The position numbers were made by a program, and so were the translations under genes. Under the pieces are notes generated by a model. The model worked only from the letters and a program-made list of their open reading frames with translations, had not been told where the DNA came from and made no database searches. Shown piece by piece: positions 4,282 through 25,625 of a stretch of DNA of 28,610 bases. The DNA is taken from NCBI GenBank assembly GCA_019307165.1, contig JAFDKD010000043.1:1-28610 (forward strand), written 5' to 3'. How positions within the stretch are numbered: position 1 is the stretch's first letter; every line of letters starts with the position of its first letter. The stretch is from Deltaproteobacteria bacterium. GTDB lineage: Bacteria > Desulfobacterota > DSM-4660 > Desulfatiglandales > Desulfatiglandaceae.

Positions 4282-4493
4282 ATGAAACTTCGTAGGGTTC
4301 AAAGGTTCAGGGTTCAAGGTTCAGGGTTGCGGGTTACTTTGTACGCTCCCCCCTTCGAAAAAGGGGGACCTAAAAAACCCCGAGACTACTGCCGTCTTCA
4401 TGAAGCTTCCTGTTCGATCAGACTTGTCGGAGCGTAGCGGAGATCCCGCCGCCCTTGGGCGGGGCCGACCCCCAGGCCAAAAGCAGCGCTTAC
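4282..4493 (-). repeat. Modular intergenic repeat element, copy E1
   Basis: Contains ATGAAACTTCGTA plus a GGTTCA(A/G)G array, a CCCCCCTT..AAGGGGG hairpin, a 29-bp block identical (reverse complement) to 25754-25782, and the GGCCGACCCCCAGGCCA..GCGCT core shared with 18003-18030 and 22820-22849. Confidence 0.85.
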
Positions 4494-6266: not shown

Positions 6267-6359
6267 GTGGACAAGCGAATGTCGAGCGTCAGTTACAAAC
6301 TCATGACCGTCATACTCAGGATGCGTGATTTCATCAGGCCGCGTAGAAATCCTTCGTGA
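6267..6359 (+). pseudogene. 30-codon N-terminal stub of a class I SAM methyltransferase fused to a CTTCGTG repeat
   Basis: RBS GAGAGGTGA, then GTG: MDKRMSSVSYKLMTVILRMRDFIRPRRNPS*. Resembles, from recall, the N-terminus of deltaproteobacterial methyltransferases, ending before any SAM-binding motif. Confidence 0.55.
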
Positions 6360-6378
6360 TGTTCGTGCGCTTCGTGGT
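6352..6378 (+). repeat. Short (C/G)TTCGTG tandem array
   Basis: cttcgtg-at-gttcgtg-cg-cttcgtg. Confidence 0.7.
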
Positions 6379-6459
6379 AAAATTAAGGGCATCCAAATCG
6401 GCTGACCCTAAAATCGCGAAACAGTGCACTTTGCACATGCAAAACAGCAGCGATTGAGC

Positions 6460-7014
6460 ATGAAAACGAAACGGCGGATATTTGCCTTACTCATCTCGAG
6501 CGTATTTGCTTTTTCAGCTGCTTGCCCGGTCAATGCGGGTGAGGGAGGGCGTATGACCAAAAAGGATGTTATCGATGCACAACAGGCCTGGGGCGATGCC
6601 ATGGTGTCCATTGGCAGCGCATATTCCGACAAACGGGACTACAAAGCCTTGGCAGCGCAACTTGTTGAAACGCTATATGGGTATGAAAAAGGCCCGGTTT
6701 TATTTAAACCCACAAAGGCGGCGAAAAAGCAGTTTCGGCTTACGGAAAAAGAGGCTGTTTCATACTTCGTCACCGGCGTGGCGCCTGAGGACCATGGCTT
6801 CGCCCTTCAGCCATGGCGCAAGGTGAGATTCGAAAACACCGGGATAATCCTTCATGCCGACGCCGCCATTGCCATGGGAAATTACTATTTTACCGATGCC
6901 GAAACGGGAAAGGAAACAAAAGCCGAGTTTACTTTCGGGTATGTCAAAGATGAGAATGGACGGGTTGTTATCAACGTACACCACTCATCTTTCCCATATA
7001 GTCCGATCCATTGA
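6460..7014 (+). CDS. Exported NTF2-like protein, candidate COG4337-type iota carbonic anhydrase
   Basis: Signal peptide; AQQAWGDA, VLFKPTKA, SYFV, GFAL.PW..VRFEN, AMGNYYFTD and terminal VHHSSFPY motifs. Confidence 0.75.
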   Translation: MKTKRRIFALLISSVFAFSAACPVNAGEGGRMTKKDVIDAQQAWGDAMVSIGSAYSDKRDYKALAAQLVETLYGYEKGPVLFKPTKAAKKQFRLTEKEAVSYFVTGVAPEDHGFALQPWRKVRFENTGIILHADAAIAMGNYYFTDAETGKETKAEFTFGYVKDENGRVVINVHHSSFPYSPIH

Positions 7015-7042
7015 ATTCACTTGGGCGTGAAAGGATGACAAG

Positions 7043-7684
7043 ATGCTGACACAAGAGAACAACCTGACGGTAATTTCTATTCCTTCGGCTTTCAAAATGG
7101 TGGGCATCATCGCAGGGACATGGGCGCTACTGGTCGTGCTGAGTTCAACCCTGGCCTATCTCCCTGGACATCCCGACTTCTCGCTGTTCACCACTTACCT
7201 GAGCGATATCGGTGACACTGCCGGGTGCGGCACGCTTATGGCCGCACCCATGCGGTACCTTGTCGTCGTGCTGCTGGTCTTGCGCCTTTTGCAGTTGGGC
7301 GCCGGCCGTGCCTTTGCCGTAGCGGCCCTGATAATCGGATTGATTTCAACCGCCGGCACTGTATTCATGACCGCCGTTCCTTTCAGCGTATCGCCGGCAA
7401 TCCATAAATCGGGCATCCCGCTGTATTTTCTCGGCGTCGTCGTTCTCCAGACGTTAATCGGCATCCGTGAATGGTCGCTGAGAAACGTTCCCAAAATCCT
7501 GCCGGTGTTGTGCTTCCTGATGGTATCTGTGTATTTCATATTTGCCACATTGGTCATTCTCCACGAGCAAGGTACGGTTGGCCGGAGCACGCCCGTGATC
7601 TGGGAATGGCTGGCTTTCTTCTCGTCCGTGGCTTGGGTATTCGCGCAGAGCATTTTGTTGGGAGGGAAGGAAGCCGCCCGGTAA
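7043..7684 (+). CDS. Polytopic membrane protein (DUF998/Frag1-like)
   Basis: About 5-6 hydrophobic segments; YLSDIG, H-containing SPAIHKSG and terminal WEW motifs. Confidence 0.65.
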   Translation: MLTQENNLTVISIPSAFKMVGIIAGTWALLVVLSSTLAYLPGHPDFSLFTTYLSDIGDTAGCGTLMAAPMRYLVVVLLVLRLLQLGAGRAFAVAALIIGLISTAGTVFMTAVPFSVSPAIHKSGIPLYFLGVVVLQTLIGIREWSLRNVPKILPVLCFLMVSVYFIFATLVILHEQGTVGRSTPVIWEWLAFFSSVAWVFAQSILLGGKEAAR

Positions 7685-7714
7685 TCATCAGCACCCTTCC
7701 TATCTCACCAGCGC

Positions 7715-7759
7715 TTTTTTTTGGGATGACGCTGAACAGCGTAGGCATCTCCAAAAAAA
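7715..7759. repeat. Long imperfect inverted repeat immediately upstream of the 7764 promoter
   Basis: ttttttttgggatg-acgctg-aa-cagcgt-agg-catctccaaaaaaa. Confidence 0.6.
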
Positions 7760-7763
7760 TTCC

Positions 7764-7806
7764 TTGACAAAATTATTTGGTATGCCAAATATTGGTATGC
7801 CAAATA
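7764..7806 (+). promoter_or_regulatory. Promoter with tandem palindromic operator (likely MarR-type)
   Basis: Perfect TTGACA at 7764-7769; exact 15-bp direct repeat TTGGTATGCCAAATA at 7777-7791 and 7792-7806, each quasi-palindromic (TTGG-TATG-CCAA), covering the expected -10 region. Confidence 0.8.
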
Positions 7807-7828
7807 AATCATGGAAAGGAGTGCCGCT

Positions 7829-8581
7829 ATGAACGACATCGCTCAAAGGATTCAAGGGATCATGGAAGAAAACCATGTGCCCGTTTTCGGCATGGCCCCG
7901 TCGCATGCCCTCGAAGACGCGCCTTCCGGGAACAGGCCGACGGAGACGCTCACTGGCACCAAGAGTGTCTTTTGCATGGGCATTCCCATGCCCAGGGGCT
8001 TGTTCTTGTGCGGATCGCGGTCCCTGGCGACCTATTGGCGGGCGGCCGCCGTAACCTACCGGCAGATGGACTGGACCCTTCTTCAGGTGGCCCGCGCCGT
8101 TGAGGAAGATGGAGGGTCGGCCGTTCCCCTTTATGGGTGATTCCCCTATGACGTCCGGGGTCCGGGCGACTTTTGTGGATATGTGTCCCTTGTGAGCATG
8201 GCCGAGACCGTTGGAATCGGCAAGCGAGGCAAAAACAGCCTGATATTACACTCCAAGTATGGCCCGAGACTTATGCTGGGAGGGCTGCTCACCACCTCGG
8301 AACTGCCCACCGGCTGTTGGCCCGAAAAGGACGATACAGGGTGCCCGGAGGATTGCGATGTTTGTATGAAGGTCTGCCCCGTGGGCGCAATCGGAGAAAA
8401 TGGCGATGTAGATCGGTTGGCCTGCATTCGGCATTCCATGAAAAGCCCCCTCTTTTCTTTTCTGATGAAAACCAAGGCATTTGATCCACAGGACGCGGCT
8501 ATGATAAATCATGTCACAGCGGTTGATGACCATTCCTGGTATACCTGCATCAAGTGTGTGTCCGAGTGCCCCCTCCTGTAG
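7829..8581 (+). CDS. Candidate selenoprotein (Sec104): QueG/reductive-dehalogenase-like 2x[4Fe-4S] protein, 250 aa with TGA read-through
   Basis: RBS AAGGAG, ATG 7829. In-frame TGA 8138-8140 in ...AVPLYG-U-FPYDVRGPGDFCGYVSLVSMAETVGIGKRGKNSLILHSKYGPRLMLGGLLTT..., then CPEDCDVCMKVCP, AC and CIKCVSECP (8 Cys). SECIS-like hairpin follows; selB is in the window. Confidence 0.85.
8152..8168 (+). promoter_or_regulatory. Bacterial SECIS-like hairpin
   Basis: CGUCCGG-GGU-CCGGGCG: 7-bp stem (one G-U) starting 11 nt after UGA, apical loop GGU 18 nt after UGA; similar spacing and GGUC apex to the E. coli fdhF SECIS. Confidence 0.75.
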
Positions 8582-8608
8582 GGGCATAACAAATAGAGGC
8601 AGGATTTC

Positions 8609-9040
8609 ATGGCAACTGACGAACGCATTATATTCCCCCTGTTTCTAGCACAGCAAAGGCTGCGAACCCATATGCAGAAGGTCCTGCGGGACCAAGGCAT
8701 CCGGGTCACCGTGGCGCAGGCGGGCATCCTCTTCCTTCTGGAAAAGAGGGACGATCGGAACATGAGCGATCTGAGCCATGCCGTGGGCATGGACAACTCC
8801 ACACTGACCGGCTCGGTGGACCGTCTGGAAAAGGCCGGCTTTGTGACGCGGAAGACCAGCAGTCGGGACCGGCGCCGGCAACAGGTCCGGCTCACGGACC
8901 TGGGCCGGGAAGAGGCCGCGCTGGCCCGTCCGGTGATACGGGGGGTCAATAAGTCGATCAAGGACCGGTTCACCCGGAAGGAAATGGATGTCCTCCTGAA
9001 GGTGCTGTATGACTTGATTCATCATTTAAAGCCATATTAA
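8609..9040 (+). CDS. MarR-family transcriptional regulator
   Basis: VTVAQAGILFLL, MSDLSHAVGMDNSTLTGSVDRLEKAGFVTR, DRRRQQVRLTDLGR winged-helix pattern. Confidence 0.93.
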   Translation: MATDERIIFPLFLAQQRLRTHMQKVLRDQGIRVTVAQAGILFLLEKRDDRNMSDLSHAVGMDNSTLTGSVDRLEKAGFVTRKTSSRDRRRQQVRLTDLGREEAALARPVIRGVNKSIKDRFTRKEMDVLLKVLYDLIHHLKPY

Positions 9041-9051
9041 TTGGAAATTCA

Positions 9052-9603
9052 ATGAATTCACTGGCGTATATTCACAGATTCCGTTCAGCTTTACCCGCCA
9101 TACGAGAATGGATTGAAACGACATTGGCAGAACATGAAGCGCAGGCGGTTGCCGTAAACGAATTCGATTTTCCCCGTCTTCAAAAGGCATTTTCCGGTGA
9201 CGTCCTGAAAAGAGCAAAATCGGTGGTTATCAAGGGAAAAGTACCTTTCCCGCCATTAACCCGAATGGGATTAGGTGAGTTGGCGACATTTGAGCGTATG
9301 TCCATAGCGGGCATAACTTACAAGGATACATTTTTCGTCAGCCGCCCTCATCAAACGGAAAGCCTGTATTTTCACGAAATGGTTCATGTCCTCCAATGGG
9401 AAAGACTGGGCATTGATGATTTCCTGCTCACATATGCAACCGGACTGATTAAATTCGGGTATAGGGACTGCCCATTGGAGCAAATCGCTTATTCCCTGGA
9501 AGAAAAGTTCGAGCGGGGTACCCTGCCTGATGGCGTTGTTGACCTTATCTGGCAAAAAATCGATGCCGTTCAGATGAATTGGCTGACACCATCTCCGGTG
9601 TAG
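9052..9603 (+). CDS. Hypothetical protein with HExxH metallopeptidase-like motif
   Basis: AGITYKDTFFV...LYFHEMVHVLQWERLG...YRDCPLEQIAY. Confidence 0.7.
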   Translation: MNSLAYIHRFRSALPAIREWIETTLAEHEAQAVAVNEFDFPRLQKAFSGDVLKRAKSVVIKGKVPFPPLTRMGLGELATFERMSIAGITYKDTFFVSRPHQTESLYFHEMVHVLQWERLGIDDFLLTYATGLIKFGYRDCPLEQIAYSLEEKFERGTLPDGVVDLIWQKIDAVQMNWLTPSPV

Positions 9604-9623
9604 CAATGCAAGCAGCGAAAACC

Positions 9624-10097
9624 ATGTTTAAGGAACTGGAAGAAATCAATGCCCGCCCCGAACCATTTGAGTTTTACACGGCAAGTGACTTGTGGACGGA
9701 CGAGCATACATCAAAGCAGATGCTTGCATTCCACCTGAACGGGGAAGTCGATGTTTCATCACGCAAGGCCGCATTTATCGACCGATCGGTCGAATGGATA
9801 GCGTCCCATTTCAGCGTCGGATCAAAAACGAAGATTGCCGACTTCGGCTGCGGTCCGGGGCTTTATGCGACCACGCTGGCGCAAAGGCAGGCGGATGTAA
9901 CCGGCATAGACTTCTCCAAGAGGTCGATTCAGTACGCGCGGGAAGCCGCTATCAGGAAAAATCTGTCGATCAACTATGTCCATCAGAACTACCTGGAATT
10001 CGGGTTTTCAATTGAAAGCTCTTTTTCAGATGTAGCAGGCTCTTCATTCAACCCGGAAACCGAGGAATTTGCAGTTGTTGCAAAGAGACTGATATGA
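9624..10097 (+). pseudogene. Class I SAM methyltransferase with apparent large in-frame internal deletion
   Basis: Motif I (IADFGCGPGLY), GIDFSKRSI and YVHQNYLEF are followed directly by a C-terminal-like GFSIESSFSDVAGSSFNPETEEFAVVAKR; the central beta4-beta6 region is absent. Confidence 0.7.
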
Positions 10098-10666
10098 AAA
10101 AAAGGTGCGAATGGTGCGGCACTGATCCCCTTTACATGGCATACCACGATGACGAATGGGGTGTCCCTGTCCGTGACGACCGCCGCTTGTTCGAAAAGCT
10201 GATCCTGGAGGGGGCGCAGGCGGGCCTGAGCTGGTTGACGATCCTGAGAAAACGGGAAAACTACCGACGGGCGTTTCACGGCTTCGACCCGGAGCGAATC
10301 GCGGCCTATTCGCAAGATGATATTCATCGCCTGCTGGCCGATCCGGGCATCGTACGGAACCGTCTGAAAATAGGATCCGCCGTAAAGAACGCGAGAGCTA
10401 CACTCAAGATCATTGAGGAGTTCGGGTCGTTTAGTTCGTTTCTATGGCGTTACGTCGATCGCAAACCGAAGCAAAATGCCTGGCCGTCATTAAATGAAGT
10501 ACCGGCACGGACCGAGCAGTCGGACAAAATGAGCAAGGATCTCAAGAAGCGGGGATTCACTTTCGTCGGTCCCACCATCTGTTACGCGTTCATGCAATCC
10601 ATGGGAATGGTGAACGACCACACGGTGAATTGCTTTCGCTACGCCCAAGTAAAGGAACTGGCCTAG
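10094..10666 (+). CDS. tag: DNA-3-methyladenine glycosylase I
   Basis: RCEWC...YHDDEWGVP, LFEKLILEGAQAGLSWLTILRKRENYR, IVRNRLKI, SKDLKKRGFTFVGPTICYAFMQSMGMVNDHTVNCF; ATGA overlap with the upstream gene. Confidence 0.97.
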   Translation: MKKRCEWCGTDPLYMAYHDDEWGVPVRDDRRLFEKLILEGAQAGLSWLTILRKRENYRRAFHGFDPERIAAYSQDDIHRLLADPGIVRNRLKIGSAVKNARATLKIIEEFGSFSSFLWRYVDRKPKQNAWPSLNEVPARTEQSDKMSKDLKKRGFTFVGPTICYAFMQSMGMVNDHTVNCFRYAQVKELA

Positions 10667-10711
10667 CGCGCACAGGTATTAGCGGATAGGAGGATTTTAA
10701 CGCGGTTATAA

Positions 10712-10734
10712 CTCCCCCCTTTACAAATGGGGGA
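10712..10734. repeat. CCCCCCTTTACAAATGGGGG hairpin (REP-like module) between convergent genes
   Basis: The core CCCCTTTACAAA also occurs at 18036-18047 and 25863-25874. Confidence 0.7.
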
Positions 10735-10777
10735 TCGTGCAAAAAACCCGGCGGATACGTTGGCGCCTTGATGGTGA

Positions 10778-12256
10778 TCAGGCAACCCCCATCCGCCCGA
10801 CGTATTTACCGTAACGGGTCAAGGCGTCCAGAACGGCAACGGCGCGGTGGGGCATGCTGTAACAGACGGAGTTGCTCTGTCCCAACGCATGGACGATCCG
10901 AGATTCAAGGATCGCGTCCGCGAACATGTGTTCGGTGGCGACAATAACCGGTTTTTCATATTGTTCCGCCATGCCGTTAAACCGTTCCATGACGTCCACC
11001 ACCCCCTGAGTCAATTCGGCTCCCCAGCGTGTCCTGCCGTCTTTGTCCGAAGCGGTGGGATGCCTTTTGCCGGCCAGGGCGGTCATGATCCCCATCACCA
11101 TGGCGGCGTCCACGGATTCGGAGCGCAAGAGCGCGTCGACACATTTGAAAATCGGTTCGCCCATGCTCCCGGCCACCAGATCGACCGGGTTACCCCGGTT
11201 CCACCATGCGGGCAGAAAACCGTCAAGCTCCTTGAGGACCTCATCGGGTAACGGGATCACATCGAAACCCCGTTCGTTGCTCGCATCGGCCGCCAGAACG
11301 CCCCAGCCCCCGCCTGACGTAACCACGCCCACCCGACGGCCCTTCGGCAGGGGCTGCCTTAGAAAGGCAAGCCCGATGTCCAGCAGATCATCGAGGCCTT
11401 CGGCCCTGATAACGCCCGCCTGTCGGCAAGCGGCTTCGAAAACCGAGTCGGCGCCTGCAATGGAAGCGGTATGGGACATGGCGGCCCTGGCGCCGGCCCG
11501 CGTCTTTCCCACCTTAAGCATAACGATGGGTTTTTTTCGACTGACTTCCCCGGCCACCTCAAGGAACCGCCTGCCGTCTTTGAACCCTTCGATGTAGCTC
11601 AGGATGACCTTGGTGTCAGGATCCTGCGCCAGGTATCGGAGATAATCCTCCGTGTGAAGTACGGCCTCGTTGCCGGTGCTCACGCACTTGCTGCATCCGA
11701 AGCCCCGCAGCATGATCTGGCGTGCCAGGGAATCCACTACATTGCCGCTCTGGGAGACGACGGCAATGGGGCCGGGCGGCGCCAGAAACGGGGGAAACTG
11801 AATATGGACCTTGGCCCGGGGGTTCATGGCGCCGTTGCAGTTGGGCCCCACCAATACCATTCCCCCCTCCCGCGCGGCGTCGGCCAGTTCCTGCTGAAGA
11901 CCGCCGGACCTCTCCCCCAGTTCCGCAAACCCTGCGGTAATGACAATCCCCGCCCGGATGCCTTTTTCGCCGCACGCCCTTACCGCCGGGACCACACTCG
12001 GGGGCGGCACCACGATGACGGCCAGATCCGGCACTTCGGGAAGCGCTTCAACGCTTCTGTAGACTTTCCGCCCCAGTATCTCGTTCGCTTTCGGGTTTAT
12101 GGGGTAAATCGGTCCGCCGAATCCCGCTGCGATCAAATTGCTCAGGGTAATATACCCCCATTTTCCGGGATTCCCGGAAGCCCCCACATAAGCCACCGAA
12201 CGGGGATTGAAGATATGGTCGATTTTCTTTATTGTTTCATCGGTGCGATGATCCAA
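10778..12256 (-). CDS. NDP-forming acyl-CoA synthetase, alpha (CoA-binding) subunit
   Basis: FNPRSVAYVGAS, IYPINP, VLVGPNCNG, SQSG, STGNEA, KVGKT..GARAAMSHTAS (phospho-His), GGGWGVLAAD, NPVDL; TTG start with AGGAGG RBS; no ATP-grasp domain. Confidence 0.9.
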   Translation of the reverse strand: MDHRTDETIKKIDHIFNPRSVAYVGASGNPGKWGYITLSNLIAAGFGGPIYPINPKANEILGRKVYRSVEALPEVPDLAVIVVPPPSVVPAVRACGEKGIRAGIVITAGFAELGERSGGLQQELADAAREGGMVLVGPNCNGAMNPRAKVHIQFPPFLAPPGPIAVVSQSGNVVDSLARQIMLRGFGCSKCVSTGNEAVLHTEDYLRYLAQDPDTKVILSYIEGFKDGRRFLEVAGEVSRKKPIVMLKVGKTRAGARAAMSHTASIAGADSVFEAACRQAGVIRAEGLDDLLDIGLAFLRQPLPKGRRVGVVTSGGGWGVLAADASNERGFDVIPLPDEVLKELDGFLPAWWNRGNPVDLVAGSMGEPIFKCVDALLRSESVDAAMVMGIMTALAGKRHPTASDKDGRTRWGAELTQGVVDVMERFNGMAEQYEKPVIVATEHMFADAILESRIVHALGQSNSVCYSMPHRAVAVLDALTRYGKYVGRMGVA

Positions 12257-12427: not shown

Positions 12428-12499
12428 GACGCATACTTCGAATTGGAAAACGCGCCCACCCCCCCGAGGCCTGCCACGGGCGATCCGGAGGAAGACACC

Positions 12500-13177
12500 A
12501 TGCCATCATCCATTCCCATAAGCGGCTGCCGGACCACAAAGATCTACTGCCGGCCGGGGTGCCCGCCCGGGAGGCGGACCAAACCTGAAAACCGGGTTTA
12601 TTTCAGCTCGGAGGCGGAGGCAAAGGCAATGGGCTACCGGGCCTGCAAGGTCTGTCGGCCGGATGTCCCCCGCTCCGAGACCTTTCTCCTGTCCGAGTAT
12701 CAAAGCCCTGTCGGTCCCTACCTCCTCGCCGGCTCTCGGTGGGGCGTCGTGGGCATCAAGAGCGGCAGCCGGTCTCAACGCTATATCGAACGTTGGAAAA
12801 AAGAGGCCATTTCATTGAAATTTGACCCGGATGCCAACGGAGAATTGAAGCAACAACTGGATGCCTACTTTACCGGGGAACTGCACCGGTTCACCCTCCC
12901 CCTGGACCTGCGGGGCACGCCGTTTCAACGCATGGTATGGGACGTTCTCAACACAATTCCGTGGGGGAAAGCCATGAGCTACGGCCAGGTGGCAAACGAC
13001 TTGGGACGCCCGAAAGCGGCCAGGGCCGTGGGGCGCGCCGTGGGGACAAACCCCGTGGCCATCGTGGTCCCGTGCCATCGCGTGCTGGGATCGGACCACT
13101 CGTTGACCGGATACGGCGGCGGCCTGGACATAAAGACGGCCCTGTTGCGGCTGGAAAAGATTGCTTACAAAAAATAA
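12500..13177 (+). CDS. ogt: Methylated-DNA-protein-cysteine methyltransferase with N-terminal Ada Zn-binding domain
   Basis: GCRTTKIYCRPGC...GYRACKVCRP (Ada Zn site); GTPFQRMVW, SYGQVA, ARAVG, NPVAIVVPCHRV, LTGYGGGL; RBS GGAGG before ATG 12500. Confidence 0.93.
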   Translation: MPSSIPISGCRTTKIYCRPGCPPGRRTKPENRVYFSSEAEAKAMGYRACKVCRPDVPRSETFLLSEYQSPVGPYLLAGSRWGVVGIKSGSRSQRYIERWKKEAISLKFDPDANGELKQQLDAYFTGELHRFTLPLDLRGTPFQRMVWDVLNTIPWGKAMSYGQVANDLGRPKAARAVGRAVGTNPVAIVVPCHRVLGSDHSLTGYGGGLDIKTALLRLEKIAYKK

Positions 13178-18138: not shown

Positions 18139-18569
18139 ATGGATGAAGGAAAAAGGGCGTTCATGAGAAAGGGGCTTGTCGGGACCCTTTACGCCGTCGC
18201 GGCAGCGGTGTTCGCCGTCCCGATTTTCTCTTTTATCACCTTCAGAAAGATCGACAGGAGGACCGTTCGCTTCAGTGTCGACGAGCAACGCGCGTCGGTG
18301 AATTTAAAGGACAACGTGTTCCTGGTAAAGAAAAAGGCCGGTGATGCGGAAAGAAAAAGGCCGGTGATGCGGCCTTTTCCGCGCGTTGCCCCCATCTGGG
18401 CTGCACGCTGCGCTTTGATGACGTGTCGCGGGAGTTTCGGTGCCCCTGCCACGGGAGCGTTTTTGACCGGTCGGGGAAGTGGTTGTCCGGTCCGGCAAAA
18501 AAAGACCTCCAGCAGATCCCCCTGGACCGGAAAGAGGAGGGGGACGTGATTGTTACGGTCACCCTTTAG
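18139..18569 (+). pseudogene. Rieske [2Fe-2S] subunit frameshifted by an exact 23-bp tandem duplication
   Basis: AAAGAAAAAGGCCGGTGATGCGG at 18327-18349 and 18350-18372. Removing one copy gives a 135-aa ORF with KRAFMR (TAT-like), a TM helix, ARCPHLGC and FRCPCHGSVFD ending at TAG 18567-18569. Confidence 0.92.
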
Positions 18570-22429: not shown

Positions 22430-22849
22430 ATGAAACTTCGTAAGGTTCAAGGTTCAGGGTTCAGAGGTTCAGGGTTTCGTGTTACGCGTTGCGGGTTACA
22501 GGCTGCGGGATAAAGGACATTGACAACCGATTATTGATGATTGGCGATTGAAAAAGATTATTCTTCCGCCTGCCGATTTCTGACTTCCGCCCTCTGACCT
22601 CCGATTTCCGACCTCTGTTTTTTATCTCGCAAAGAACGCAAAGGTCGCCAAGATAAGGGCATTCGTTGTCGTTGTCGTAATCGCCGTAGGGCGCCCAACG
22701 CTCTCTTGAAAAAACGGAAGCGCCTTTTCCAAAGGGGCGCCTGTCCGCCGGTTTCGGGCGGGACTTAATCGAGCCTGCGGTTATTGCCGTTGTCATGAAC
22801 TTTCACGGTCGATTAGACCGGCCGACCCCGGGCCGGAGGCGGCGCTGAC
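22430..22849 (-). repeat. Modular repeat element, expanded copy E3 (heptamer mosaic)
   Basis: Same termini as E1/E2 (GTCAGCGCCGCC... and ...TACGAAGTTTCAT); interior filled with GGTTCA(A/G)G, CGxGTTx, xxGATTG, C(C/T)GA(C/T)(C/T)T (22573-22621), CGCAAAG and CGTTGT arrays. Confidence 0.85.
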
Positions 22850-23720: not shown

Positions 23721-25625
23721 TTATTTTTTTCTCAAGACCCGGTTGTCTCCCACCCGAACGGTGATCTGCGACTTGTCAAAGTACTCGATCAAAGGTATGG
23801 CGTACTTACGTGAGACGCCGGTCATGTCCTTGAACTGAGGCGTGGTTATTTCCCCGTTCGCCTTCAAAAAATCGATCATTCGGTCTTTGAGCGCTTCGAT
23901 GGCCTTCCCGTAGAAGTAGAGGTCTTCTTTGACCTTGATGACGATGCCTTCTTCAAGCATGACGGCCAAAACCTCCTTCGCAGTCTTTCCCGGGAATTCC
24001 CCTGAGATCTCCTTCAAATAGGGCGGCTGAAGCCCCTTTTCCCGATATATCTTCTCAAGCCGATCGCGCGCCTTTTCCTGGTCCTGTGCCAGGGTTACCT
24101 GGTGCTCCTTAAGCCGAACCAGTTCCTTTTCCTGGACCACCACATCTTCTTTTGTCAGCTGATTCATGACGTAATTGAACAGCTTGACGTTTTTTGCGCC
24201 TTCGGTCCTGGATCGCAATTCCTCTTTGGGAAGCCCGATTTTGAGGGGAAATTCTCCGTGGTAACGGCTGATGGTCTCGACGACCTGGTCCCTGGCCGCG
24301 GCAAAAAAATCCGCATGGATCAGGGCCCCCCGCTCTTTGTCATAGGCAATGACCCGCTTGCGGGCCTTCAACCCTTTAAGAACGTCATCAAGCCTTTTCC
24401 TGCGGGTGTTCGTCAGAAAGGAAAGCTCCCCTTCCTCCACGCCGCGGTATCGACCCATCAGTACAAACAACTCGCATGTTTCAGCCGGGTCCCCGTCAGC
24501 CAGTAGTTTCATCTGCGAAGCCGCTTTTTCCGAAAACCGCTTCATTTTCCCCGGCAGCGCATTGAGGATATCGCCACCCCCTATGGTCCTCACCGGCGAG
24601 TAGCTCCTCAGCACATAACGGTCGCCCCGCAGTACGGCCACGGGCGCTTCGAGCCGCATCTGCGCGAAACAACCTTCGCCGGGTTTCAGTTCATCCCGAT
24701 CCGACAGAACAACCGTGGCGATAACTTCCGAAGTTCCGGTGTGAAACCGGGCCTTGGCCCTGTTTTTGAGCTTCCGTGGCGAACTCTTGAGCAGATCCAG
24801 CCGGACATCCACCATGAAGCTCGGCCGAAGGGCATCCTTTGTGGCCAGCACATCGCCCCTGCGGATGGTCGTCCGCTCGATGCCCTGGAGGTTGATGGCG
24901 GTCCGCAGCCCGGCCCGAACATCCCGGACCTCCTTGTTGTGAACCTGGATGCCCCTGATCCGGGACTCGATTTCCTGGGGATAAATCGTGATCTCGCCGC
25001 CGGTGGAAGCCATACCGGACACGGTGGTCCCGGTGATGACGGTGCCGAACCCCTTCATGCTGAAGACCCGGTCGATGGGCAGTCTGAAAATGTGACCCAG
25101 GTCCCGGTCGGGAATGTTCGCCACCAGTTGGTCCAGGGTCTGGATCAACTCCGGAATCCCCTGTCCGTTGAGCGAGGAGACTTCCACGATGGGCGACTCC
25201 CCCAAAAAGGTGTTGGCGAGATAGTCGCTCACATCTTCCCGAACCAGTTCCAGCCATTCCTGTTCGACCATGTCGATCTTGGTCAGGACCACAAGCCCGT
25301 GCCGCACCTTCAGCAGTTCGCAGATCTCCAGGTGCTCTCTGGTCTGGGGCATGACGCCTTCGTCCGCGGCGATCACCAGCGCCACAAGGTCGATGCCCGT
25401 GGCGCCGGCCACCATGTTCTTGACAAATTTCTCGTGGCCCGGCACGTCCACGATCCCCAACAGTTTGCCGCCGGGCAGTTCCAGGTGGGCGAATCCCAGC
25501 TCGATGGTGATGCCGCGCAGTTTTTCCTCTTTCAACCGGTCCGTGTCGATGCCGGTAAGGGCCCTGATGAGGGAGGTCTTGCCATGGTCGATGTGTCCCG
25601 CCGTACCCAGTACAATCTGTTTCAT
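23721..25625 (-). CDS. selB: Selenocysteine-specific translation elongation factor
   Basis: [41 protein letters not shown]-terminal winged helices ending [15 protein letters not shown]...RVGDNR. Confidence 0.97.

Follow-up and report, generated by a model that had tools for sequence, protein, structure and literature searches.

The window analysed here, the whole stretch of 28,610 nucleotides at positions 1 to 28,610 of contig JAFDKD010000043.1 (assembly GCA_019307165.1), derives from a deltaproteobacterium that is placed by GTDB in the family Desulfatiglandaceae of the phylum Desulfobacterota. It harbors a promoter overlapped by a tandem of two palindromes, which is followed by five genes on the same strand (Table 1). 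The first gene encodes a protein of 250 amino acids that contains selenocysteine (Sec) and is related to QueG and RdhA, hereafter termed the reductase, and the second, beginning 27 nt after it, encodes a regulator of the MarR family. Then come, 11 nt after marR, an open frame for a protein with an HExxH motif, at a further distance of 2-20 nt the remnant of a methyltransferase gene, and finally tag, which overlaps the remnant by 4 nt. The subject of the present account is the tandem repeat as a probable operator of the adjacent MarR protein, and the unit of genes that would be governed by it.

The repeat was described by Tandem Repeats Finder at 7777-7806 as 2.0 copies of the unit TTGGTATGCCAAATA with a period of 15 and 100% matches. 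Each 15-bp unit includes TTGG-TATG-CCAA, in which 5/6 of the symmetric pairs match, and the two units together with their flanks constitute a near-palindrome of 35 bp (7773-7807), the 16-nt arms of which are 88% complementary. A consensus scan of the region 6300-11000 returned a sole sigma70-like promoter match, composed of TTGACA, a spacer of 18 nt, and AATATT at 7764-7793 (10/12), which puts the -10 hexamer on the junction of the two repeat copies. Transcription would start near 7800, within site 2 in the second copy, so that the palindromes would not be transcribed whole. The original prediction, made from the letters of the sequence, had claimed an exact quasi-palindromic 15-bp tandem that overlaps the -10 region behind TTGACA, followed by the gene order given above with short gaps or overlaps, and all of this is borne out by the repeat analysis, the promoter scan, and the gene coordinates.

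An exact 15-bp tandem in 28.6 kb is not a chance event, as only ~3e-5 would be expected by arithmetic. When up to three mismatches were allowed, the motif was encountered four times in the window against 0.6 expected, a number reached in 0 of 100 shuffles. A scan of the 5.07-Mb genome for the motif, which had been proposed as a check together with the prediction, found the paired pattern TTRG-N4-CYAA-N3-TTRG-N4-CYAA once, at this promoter, where ~0.02 would be expected by arithmetic; the exact 12-mer of the operator has no other copy in the genome, and the two other matches to TTTGG-N4-CCAAA are located inside long open frames. A wider regulon in this genome was therefore rejected. An RNA element in the leader was rejected as well, in view of the lack of any Rfam match in 7600-10800 at E <= 1; two chance matches were obtained elsewhere.

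Table 1. Features of the promoter and of the five co-directional genes (positions in the window)
Feature	Position	Strand	Evidence
A/T-rich tract, possible UP-like element (putative function)	7750..7763	+	sequence; T-rich run at the equivalent place in relatives
-35 hexamer TTGACA	7764..7769	+	consensus scan; fixed distance to the operator in >20 relatives (or one-letter variant)
Candidate operator site 1, TTGGTATGCCAA, 12-bp near-palindrome in the -35/-10 interval	7777..7788	+	best conserved element in relatives
Predicted -10 hexamer AATATT, 18-nt spacer	7788..7793	+	consensus match only
Candidate operator site 2, TTGGTATGCCAA, over the putative transcription start	7792..7803	+	more degenerate counterpart in relatives
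Ribosome-binding site GGAAAGGAG, with a GGAG core that ends 7 nt ahead of the ATG (7829)	7813..7821	+	sequence
QueG/RdhA-like Fe-S protein of 250 aa, selenocysteine 104 (TGA 8138-8140)	7829..8581	+	profiles, homologues, model
7-bp G+C-rich hairpin, candidate selenocysteine insertion sequence (SECIS), starting 11 nt after the UGA	8152..8168	+	fold versus shuffles, z = 0.18
MarR-family repressor, 143 aa, candidate operator binder	8609..9040	+	PF01047; orthologues beside the reductase gene
HExxH (HEMVH) hypothetical protein, lower G+C	9052..9603	+	not a conserved partner of the pair
Remnant of a class I S-adenosylmethionine (SAM) methyltransferase; true start probably ATG 9624	9606..10097	+	family alignment
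tag, DNA-3-methyladenine glycosylase I, intact; closes the co-directional run	10094..10666	+	TIGR00624, PF03352

The association of the reductase gene with marR was surveyed in 45 loci, cited here by L-numbers where needed, which were taken from GTDB species representatives and each contain a gene for a relative of the reductase. Conservation of this neighbourhood had likewise been named beforehand as a check, and it was found that 36 of the 45 loci carry a MarR homologue on the same strand as the reductase gene, in one of three arrangements. Type A has the order seen in the window, with marR behind the reductase gene (MarR 42-49% identical); in type B marR lies directly upstream of the reductase gene (33-37% identical); and in type C marR is upstream, either adjacent or one gene away (43-50% identical), the intervening gene encoding a ferredoxin-domain protein in the locus that was checked (L032). 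Beyond this set the pair is present in L010, L057, and L058. In a genome of the same family a Sec-form reductase gene is followed by marR. Among metagenomic relatives, the closest (73% identity, with cysteine in place of Sec) has marR directly downstream of the reductase gene, while the next-closest has the order reductase, ferredoxin, marR. Nine of the 45 loci have no MarR gene, some of them ending at contig edges or being distant paralogues. The survey supports a conserved core of two genes, the reductase gene and marR, which would share one promoter.

In some relatives (L032:2864-3952, L058:932-2017, and other type C loci) a protein of ~362 amino acids is encoded between the reductase gene and marR, which resembles a winged helix in its N-terminal region, has a 2x[4Fe-4S] ferredoxin domain, and may be the electron donor. 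In the window, no counterpart of this protein adjoins the pair.

The MarR protein itself matches PF01047 with 49.9 bits (cut-off 24.6) and PF12802 with 41.7 bits (cut-off 27) over residues 33-90, and it stays below the cut-off of every named equivalog model. Its score on the SlyA model NF002926 is 38.1 bits against a cut-off of 120, which leaves it outside that subfamily, and the OhrR model gives 42.5 bits against a cut-off of 200. A switch by thiol oxidation is excluded, because the protein is devoid of cysteine. The next-best MarR paralogue in the genome is just 29% identical, so that no close paralogue is present.

The promoter layout proved to be shared as well. In ~25 loci with only 50-73% protein identity, a common block is observed, consisting of TTGACA preceded by a T-rich run, 7-8 nt, TTRG-N4-CYAA, 3 nt, and a second, more degenerate site, and this block precedes the first gene of the pair, be it the reductase gene (type A) or marR (type B). 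The information content is high over the -35 hexamer and site 1; in site 2 it is moderate, and on either side of the block it is low. Since the layout is common to ~25 relatives, the two-site design must be regarded as old rather than as a fresh duplication, and what is special to the genome of the window is only that its two copies agree in every letter. Most relatives have TTAG..CTAA, two of them as the perfect palindrome TTAGCATGCTAA, and TTGG..CCAA is used in the window, L019, L012, and L057; in L057, the closest relative, the promoter reads TTGACA-aaattat-TTGGCGTGCCAA-ata-TTGGCATGTCAA. From the -35 hexamer through site 1 the promoter in the window is identical to the type B consensus except for the changes of TTAG to TTGG and of CTAA to CCAA, and site 2 also has TTGG for TTAG, with further differences in its interior. 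Such symmetric substitutions are the signature that would be expected where a palindrome and the protein bound to it have changed in concert.

This pattern has a counterpart in the start of the MarR recognition helix, where DNST goes with TTGG/CCAA (the window, L057, L019, and L012) and (E/x)NPT goes with TTAG/CTAA (the type A subclade and the type B clade), each pairing being found in two distinct regions of the MarR tree. In addition, a search for the MarR protein in 400 sampled genomes of the phylum revealed subfamily members for which the fetched flanks of 1.5 kb contain no reductase gene. Among these sister genes, L066, L068, and L069 encode MarR proteins with DNST helices; the promoter of L066 reads TTGACA-N7-TTGGTGTGCCAA and is of the TTGG..CCAA type, L069 has two TTGG-type sites, and L068 has kept the promoter with CCAA halves only. 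As cargo, the sister operons have a gene for an acyl-CoA dehydrogenase or one for a 4HBT (hotdog) thioesterase (L066:1946-3103, L068:1938-3065, L069:1933-2397). As the same operator design is thus found with other cargo, the switch follows the regulator and not the cargo. On account of the co-variation with the helix, the sister operons, the uniqueness of the site in the genome, and the absence of a close paralogue, the tandem repeat very probably serves the adjacent MarR protein as its operator.

The reading preferred here, which we consider quite likely, is that MarR binds both palindromes and represses the reductase gene and marR until it is released by a small ligand, the regulated unit being the two-gene core. 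The segment 7764-7806 would be a sigma70-type promoter with a built-in two-site operator, and MarR dimers would bind the TTGG-N4-CCAA palindromes of sites 1 and 2 and thereby block RNA polymerase. In this manner MarR would repress its own synthesis along with that of the reductase, encoded first in the transcript, and release would be brought about by a small ligand instead of thiol oxidation. The HExxH gene, the deleted methyltransferase, and tag would be lineage-specific additions that are transcribed by read-through. Judged by sequence layout, a palindromic operator covers the promoter of the regulator's own unit, as is characteristic of a MarR repressor, and the position of the sites between the -35 hexamer and the start points to repression rather than activation. 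The MarR-repressed operon of the original prediction is thereby retained for its core of the selenoprotein gene and marR and for its operator, on the grounds of conservation and of the helix match, and is given up as a module of five genes. Two further elements of that prediction have to be abandoned: release by oxidation does not agree with a MarR protein that has no cysteine, and a duplication in the sense of a recent event does not agree with a two-site design present in ~25 related loci.

Several points weigh against the two-gene autoregulatory switch. Binding, repression, the ligand, co-transcription, and the transcription start are all deduced from sequence. The -10 match is weak (4/6), and the sigma70 consensus may not fit this uncultured lineage of Desulfobacterota. 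The site centres are 15 bp, or ~1.4 helical turns, apart, and two MarR dimers would therefore sit on roughly opposite faces of the DNA with overlapping footprints, which means that simultaneous filling of both sites is not assured. All of the relatives compared are metagenome bins, at least four loci with full flanks have a reductase gene without an adjoining MarR gene, and ten type C loci with a closely related MarR carry different palindromes. Moreover, few independent transitions lie behind the correlation of helix and operator, and the deep branches of the tree are weak.

The broader alternative, in which all five genes would form one functional inducible detoxification module, is improbable. 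It draws on the co-directional, tightly packed arrangement of the genes, on the absence of any other promoter-like site in 6300-11000, and on terminator-like matches that are no commoner than in shuffles. Tight spacing and the lack of another promoter match do make read-through into the downstream genes likely, and the three genes are probably transcribed in this way, as the gaps are too short to hold a promoter or terminator; they nevertheless stand outside the conserved module. A common function is another matter: the three downstream genes are absent beside the pair in 45/45 GTDB loci and in the closer relatives, the HExxH family is found elsewhere in toxin-antitoxin, restriction-modification, and SIR2/HerA islands, the methyltransferase has lost ~120 internal residues of its fold, and the fall in G+C to 0.44-0.49 over 8950-9850 suggests a later insertion. 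The detoxification module claimed originally is consequently unsupported, because none of the three genes downstream of marR is a conserved partner of the pair.

Other alternatives accept the promoter and dispute what happens on it. That a different regulator binds the palindromes, with the adjacent MarR acting elsewhere or not at all, is a very slim prospect; palindromes of the TTAG..CTAA type are indeed recognised by several winged-helix families, but the operator travels with this MarR subfamily even where the cargo differs, its letters track the MarR recognition helix, and the site is unique in a genome in which MarR has no close paralogue. Still less credit can be given to MarR as an activator or anti-silencer, a role suggested by SlyA/RovA-type MarR proteins, which have similar 12-bp sites and can counter silencing (PMC6401476), since the sites lie between the -35 hexamer and the start and not upstream of -35, in a position that occludes RNA polymerase, and SlyA and RovA themselves autorepress from such positions. 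Finally, the exact tandem might be a recent slippage duplication or a functionless artefact of assembly. The copies are 100% identical here while the second site differs from the first in every relative, and the window contains another exact tandem (23 bp x2, 18327-18372); against this, the geometry of 12 + 3 + 12 recurs in ~25 loci at 50-73% protein identity, and the loss of one copy would break a conserved design, which renders this explanation scarcely credible.

The two-gene switch can be compared with several known systems. The site of SlyA/RovA-type MarR proteins is the 12-bp TTAGCAAGCTAA, and proteins of the MarR family are typically autorepressors that are released by small aromatic acids (PMC2156107, PMC5797941, PMC6401476). 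The window shares with them a 12-bp palindrome of the TTAG..CTAA type, the TTAGCATGCTAA of its relatives being one letter away from the SlyA consensus, as well as a winged-helix MarR, and autorepression from promoter sites and small aromatic ligands are predicted here on the same model. It differs in using TTGG..CCAA, in having two sites 15 bp apart on one promoter, in lacking a context of H-NS counter-silencing, and in its cargo, a gene for a B12-type reductase. Only the operator type resembles SlyA, and by score the MarR protein is not of the SlyA subfamily.

In marRAB of Escherichia coli, the MarR gene lies inside the operon that it controls, and marO has a palindromic site in the -35/-10 region and another downstream of it, through which the promoter is occluded. 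An autoregulated MarR operon, two palindromic sites, and occlusion are likewise proposed for the window. In contrast with marRAB, the regulator gene takes second place (in type B relatives it leads the pair), and its sites are contiguous instead of being set apart. On the MarR equivalog model, which has a cut-off of 240, the protein attains 18 bits. It has no cysteine, so that the sensing of copper or oxidation proposed for E. coli MarR cannot apply.

The closest analogue at the level of the system is RdhR (Rdh2R) of Dehalococcoides mccartyi (Krasper et al. 2016, as cited in PMC12961961), MarR-type regulators that are encoded beside reductive dehalogenase genes; the rdhR genes described in PMC12961961 are in inverse orientation relative to rdhAB. 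In both cases the gene for a MarR-type regulator accompanies one that encodes a member of the cobalamin/[4Fe-4S] reductase superfamily; the regulator in the window differs from the inverse rdhR in being on the same strand and, by prediction, in the same operon. The dehalogenases next to RdhR are respiratory enzymes of 450-500 amino acids with twin-arginine translocation (Tat) signals and RdhB anchors, whereas the protein in the window is a cytoplasmic minimal form of 250 amino acids, of a family with Sec or Cys at position 104.

The cargo gene belongs to a family of >200 homologues of ~250 amino acids, which start at equivalent MN(D/E)I residues and many of which were named 'epoxyqueuosine reductase' by the Joint Genome Institute (JGI). 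Position 104 is an invariant cysteine in the 120 Cys-form homologues, with which Sec 104 is aligned. At least 17 relatives have TGA at this codon and the others TGT or TGC, which amounts to a switch between Sec and Cys at a single invariant position within the motif YG(C/U)FPY. This switch was noted for 7829-8581 of the window and for L019, L022, L025, L026, L029, L031, L032, and L036, together with L037, L041, L043, L048, L050, L053, and L010, and the Sec forms are cut in two by gene callers. The window also encodes SelB (23730-25616, minus strand; 368 bits against a cut-off of 242), and one tRNA-SeC with the anticodon tca was detected in the genome by ARAGORN. The selenoprotein reading of 7829-8581 is sound on the grounds of the TGA codons in the relatives, selB, and tRNA-SeC; the fold energy of the candidate SECIS hairpin is no better than that of shuffled sequences.

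The reductase matches the QueG model TIGR00276 with 45.9 bits (cut-off 200) and the reductive dehalogenase model TIGR02486 with 24.5 bits (cut-off 160.35), matches which are weak but specific, and with such a score on TIGR00276 the label 'epoxyqueuosine reductase QueG' is an over-annotation. The sequence profile matches 5d6s (4e-8) and 8q4h, and the ferredoxin-type motifs CxxxCxxCxxxCP and CxxCxxxCP are invariant in the homologues. A first structure model from 26 sequences was discarded as too poor, with a predicted local distance difference test score (pLDDT) of 57, and the model from 121 sequences reached a pLDDT of 82.6 and a predicted template modelling score (pTM) of 0.85. With the latter, 46 of 46 Foldseek matches at E <= 0.001 in the PDB were chains of QueG, PceA-type proteins, or NpRdhA, with a probability of 1.0 and a template modelling (TM) score of ~0.55-0.6 on the query. 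The modelled fold and the two ferredoxin-type cysteine motifs, both of which are shared with QueG (PDB 5d6s, 5d08), PceA, and NpRdhA, thus assign the reductase to the QueG/RdhA superfamily of cobalamin-[4Fe-4S] proteins. It differs from QueG in being ~130 residues shorter and in the invariant Cys/Sec of YG(C/U)FPY, and its binding of cobalamin is a prediction. A keyword search found no paper describing this family as selenoproteins or linking it to MarR, and a review from 2026 on prokaryotic selenoproteomes, searched likewise by keyword, gave nothing, though the family might be listed there under another name.

Downstream of the pair, the G+C content decreases from 0.55-0.65 to 0.44-0.49 over 8950-9850. 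The HExxH protein gave no match in Pfam, NCBIfam, PADLOC, or PHROGs; it represents a widespread family of ~184 amino acids without a Pfam model, for which one UniRef record says DUF4157, and its homologues are situated in toxin-antitoxin, restriction-modification, defence, and SIR2/HerA islands (L059, L062, L063). The methyltransferase remnant has suffered an in-frame loss of approximately residues 127-246 of a 279-residue family, being 83% identical to family residues 1-126 and rejoining the family at about residue 247, and a weak hairpin followed by a T-run (10002-10026) is located at the deletion junction. The product of tag scores 266 bits on TIGR00624 (cut-off 232.5) and E = 3e-85 on PF03352. 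Homologues of the HExxH protein, the methyltransferase, Tag, and the products of the two upstream genes occurred in none of the 45 GTDB loci.

Elsewhere in the window, a gene for an Ada-Zn/MGMT fusion (12443-13177; Ada_Zn_binding and DNA_binding_1) lies 1.8 kb from tag, and these two alkylation-repair genes flank a convergent gene on the minus strand (10778-12256) that resembles acyl-CoA synthetases of the nucleoside diphosphate (NDP)-forming type. An exported protein encoded at 6424-7014 scores 135 bits on the metal-independent carbonic anhydrase model NF047901, below its cut-off of 350. A further tandem repeat at 2583-2630 consists of 3.2 copies of a 15-bp unit, and arrays of the heptamer A(A/G)GGTTC, with ~5 copies each, are found at 4294-4328 and 22442-22476.

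The regulation proposed here is that of an ordinary autoregulated MarR switch, and its value would reside in the handle that it offers on the cargo gene, which encodes a widespread, mislabelled, and unstudied 250-residue relative of the B12 enzymes QueG and RdhA. For annotation, only the two-gene core should be treated as a module. It is reasonable that the ligand of MarR could point to the substrate of the enzyme, and with a well-defined operator and a readable code between helix and operator, DNST with TTGG and NPT with TTAG, the inducing ligand could be sought by a simple assay in vitro, which would in turn be a route to the substrate of the reductase. Given the acyl-CoA dehydrogenase and hotdog thioesterase in the sister operons, a shared ligand may be a carboxylic acid or a CoA thioester. 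A more far-reaching proposal, tentative and rather doubtful at present, is that this MarR subfamily senses the substrate, or a close precursor of it, of a third branch of B12/[4Fe-4S] reductases that makes use of Cys/Sec 104; if this were true, knowledge of the ligand would provide the entire family of reductases with a function.

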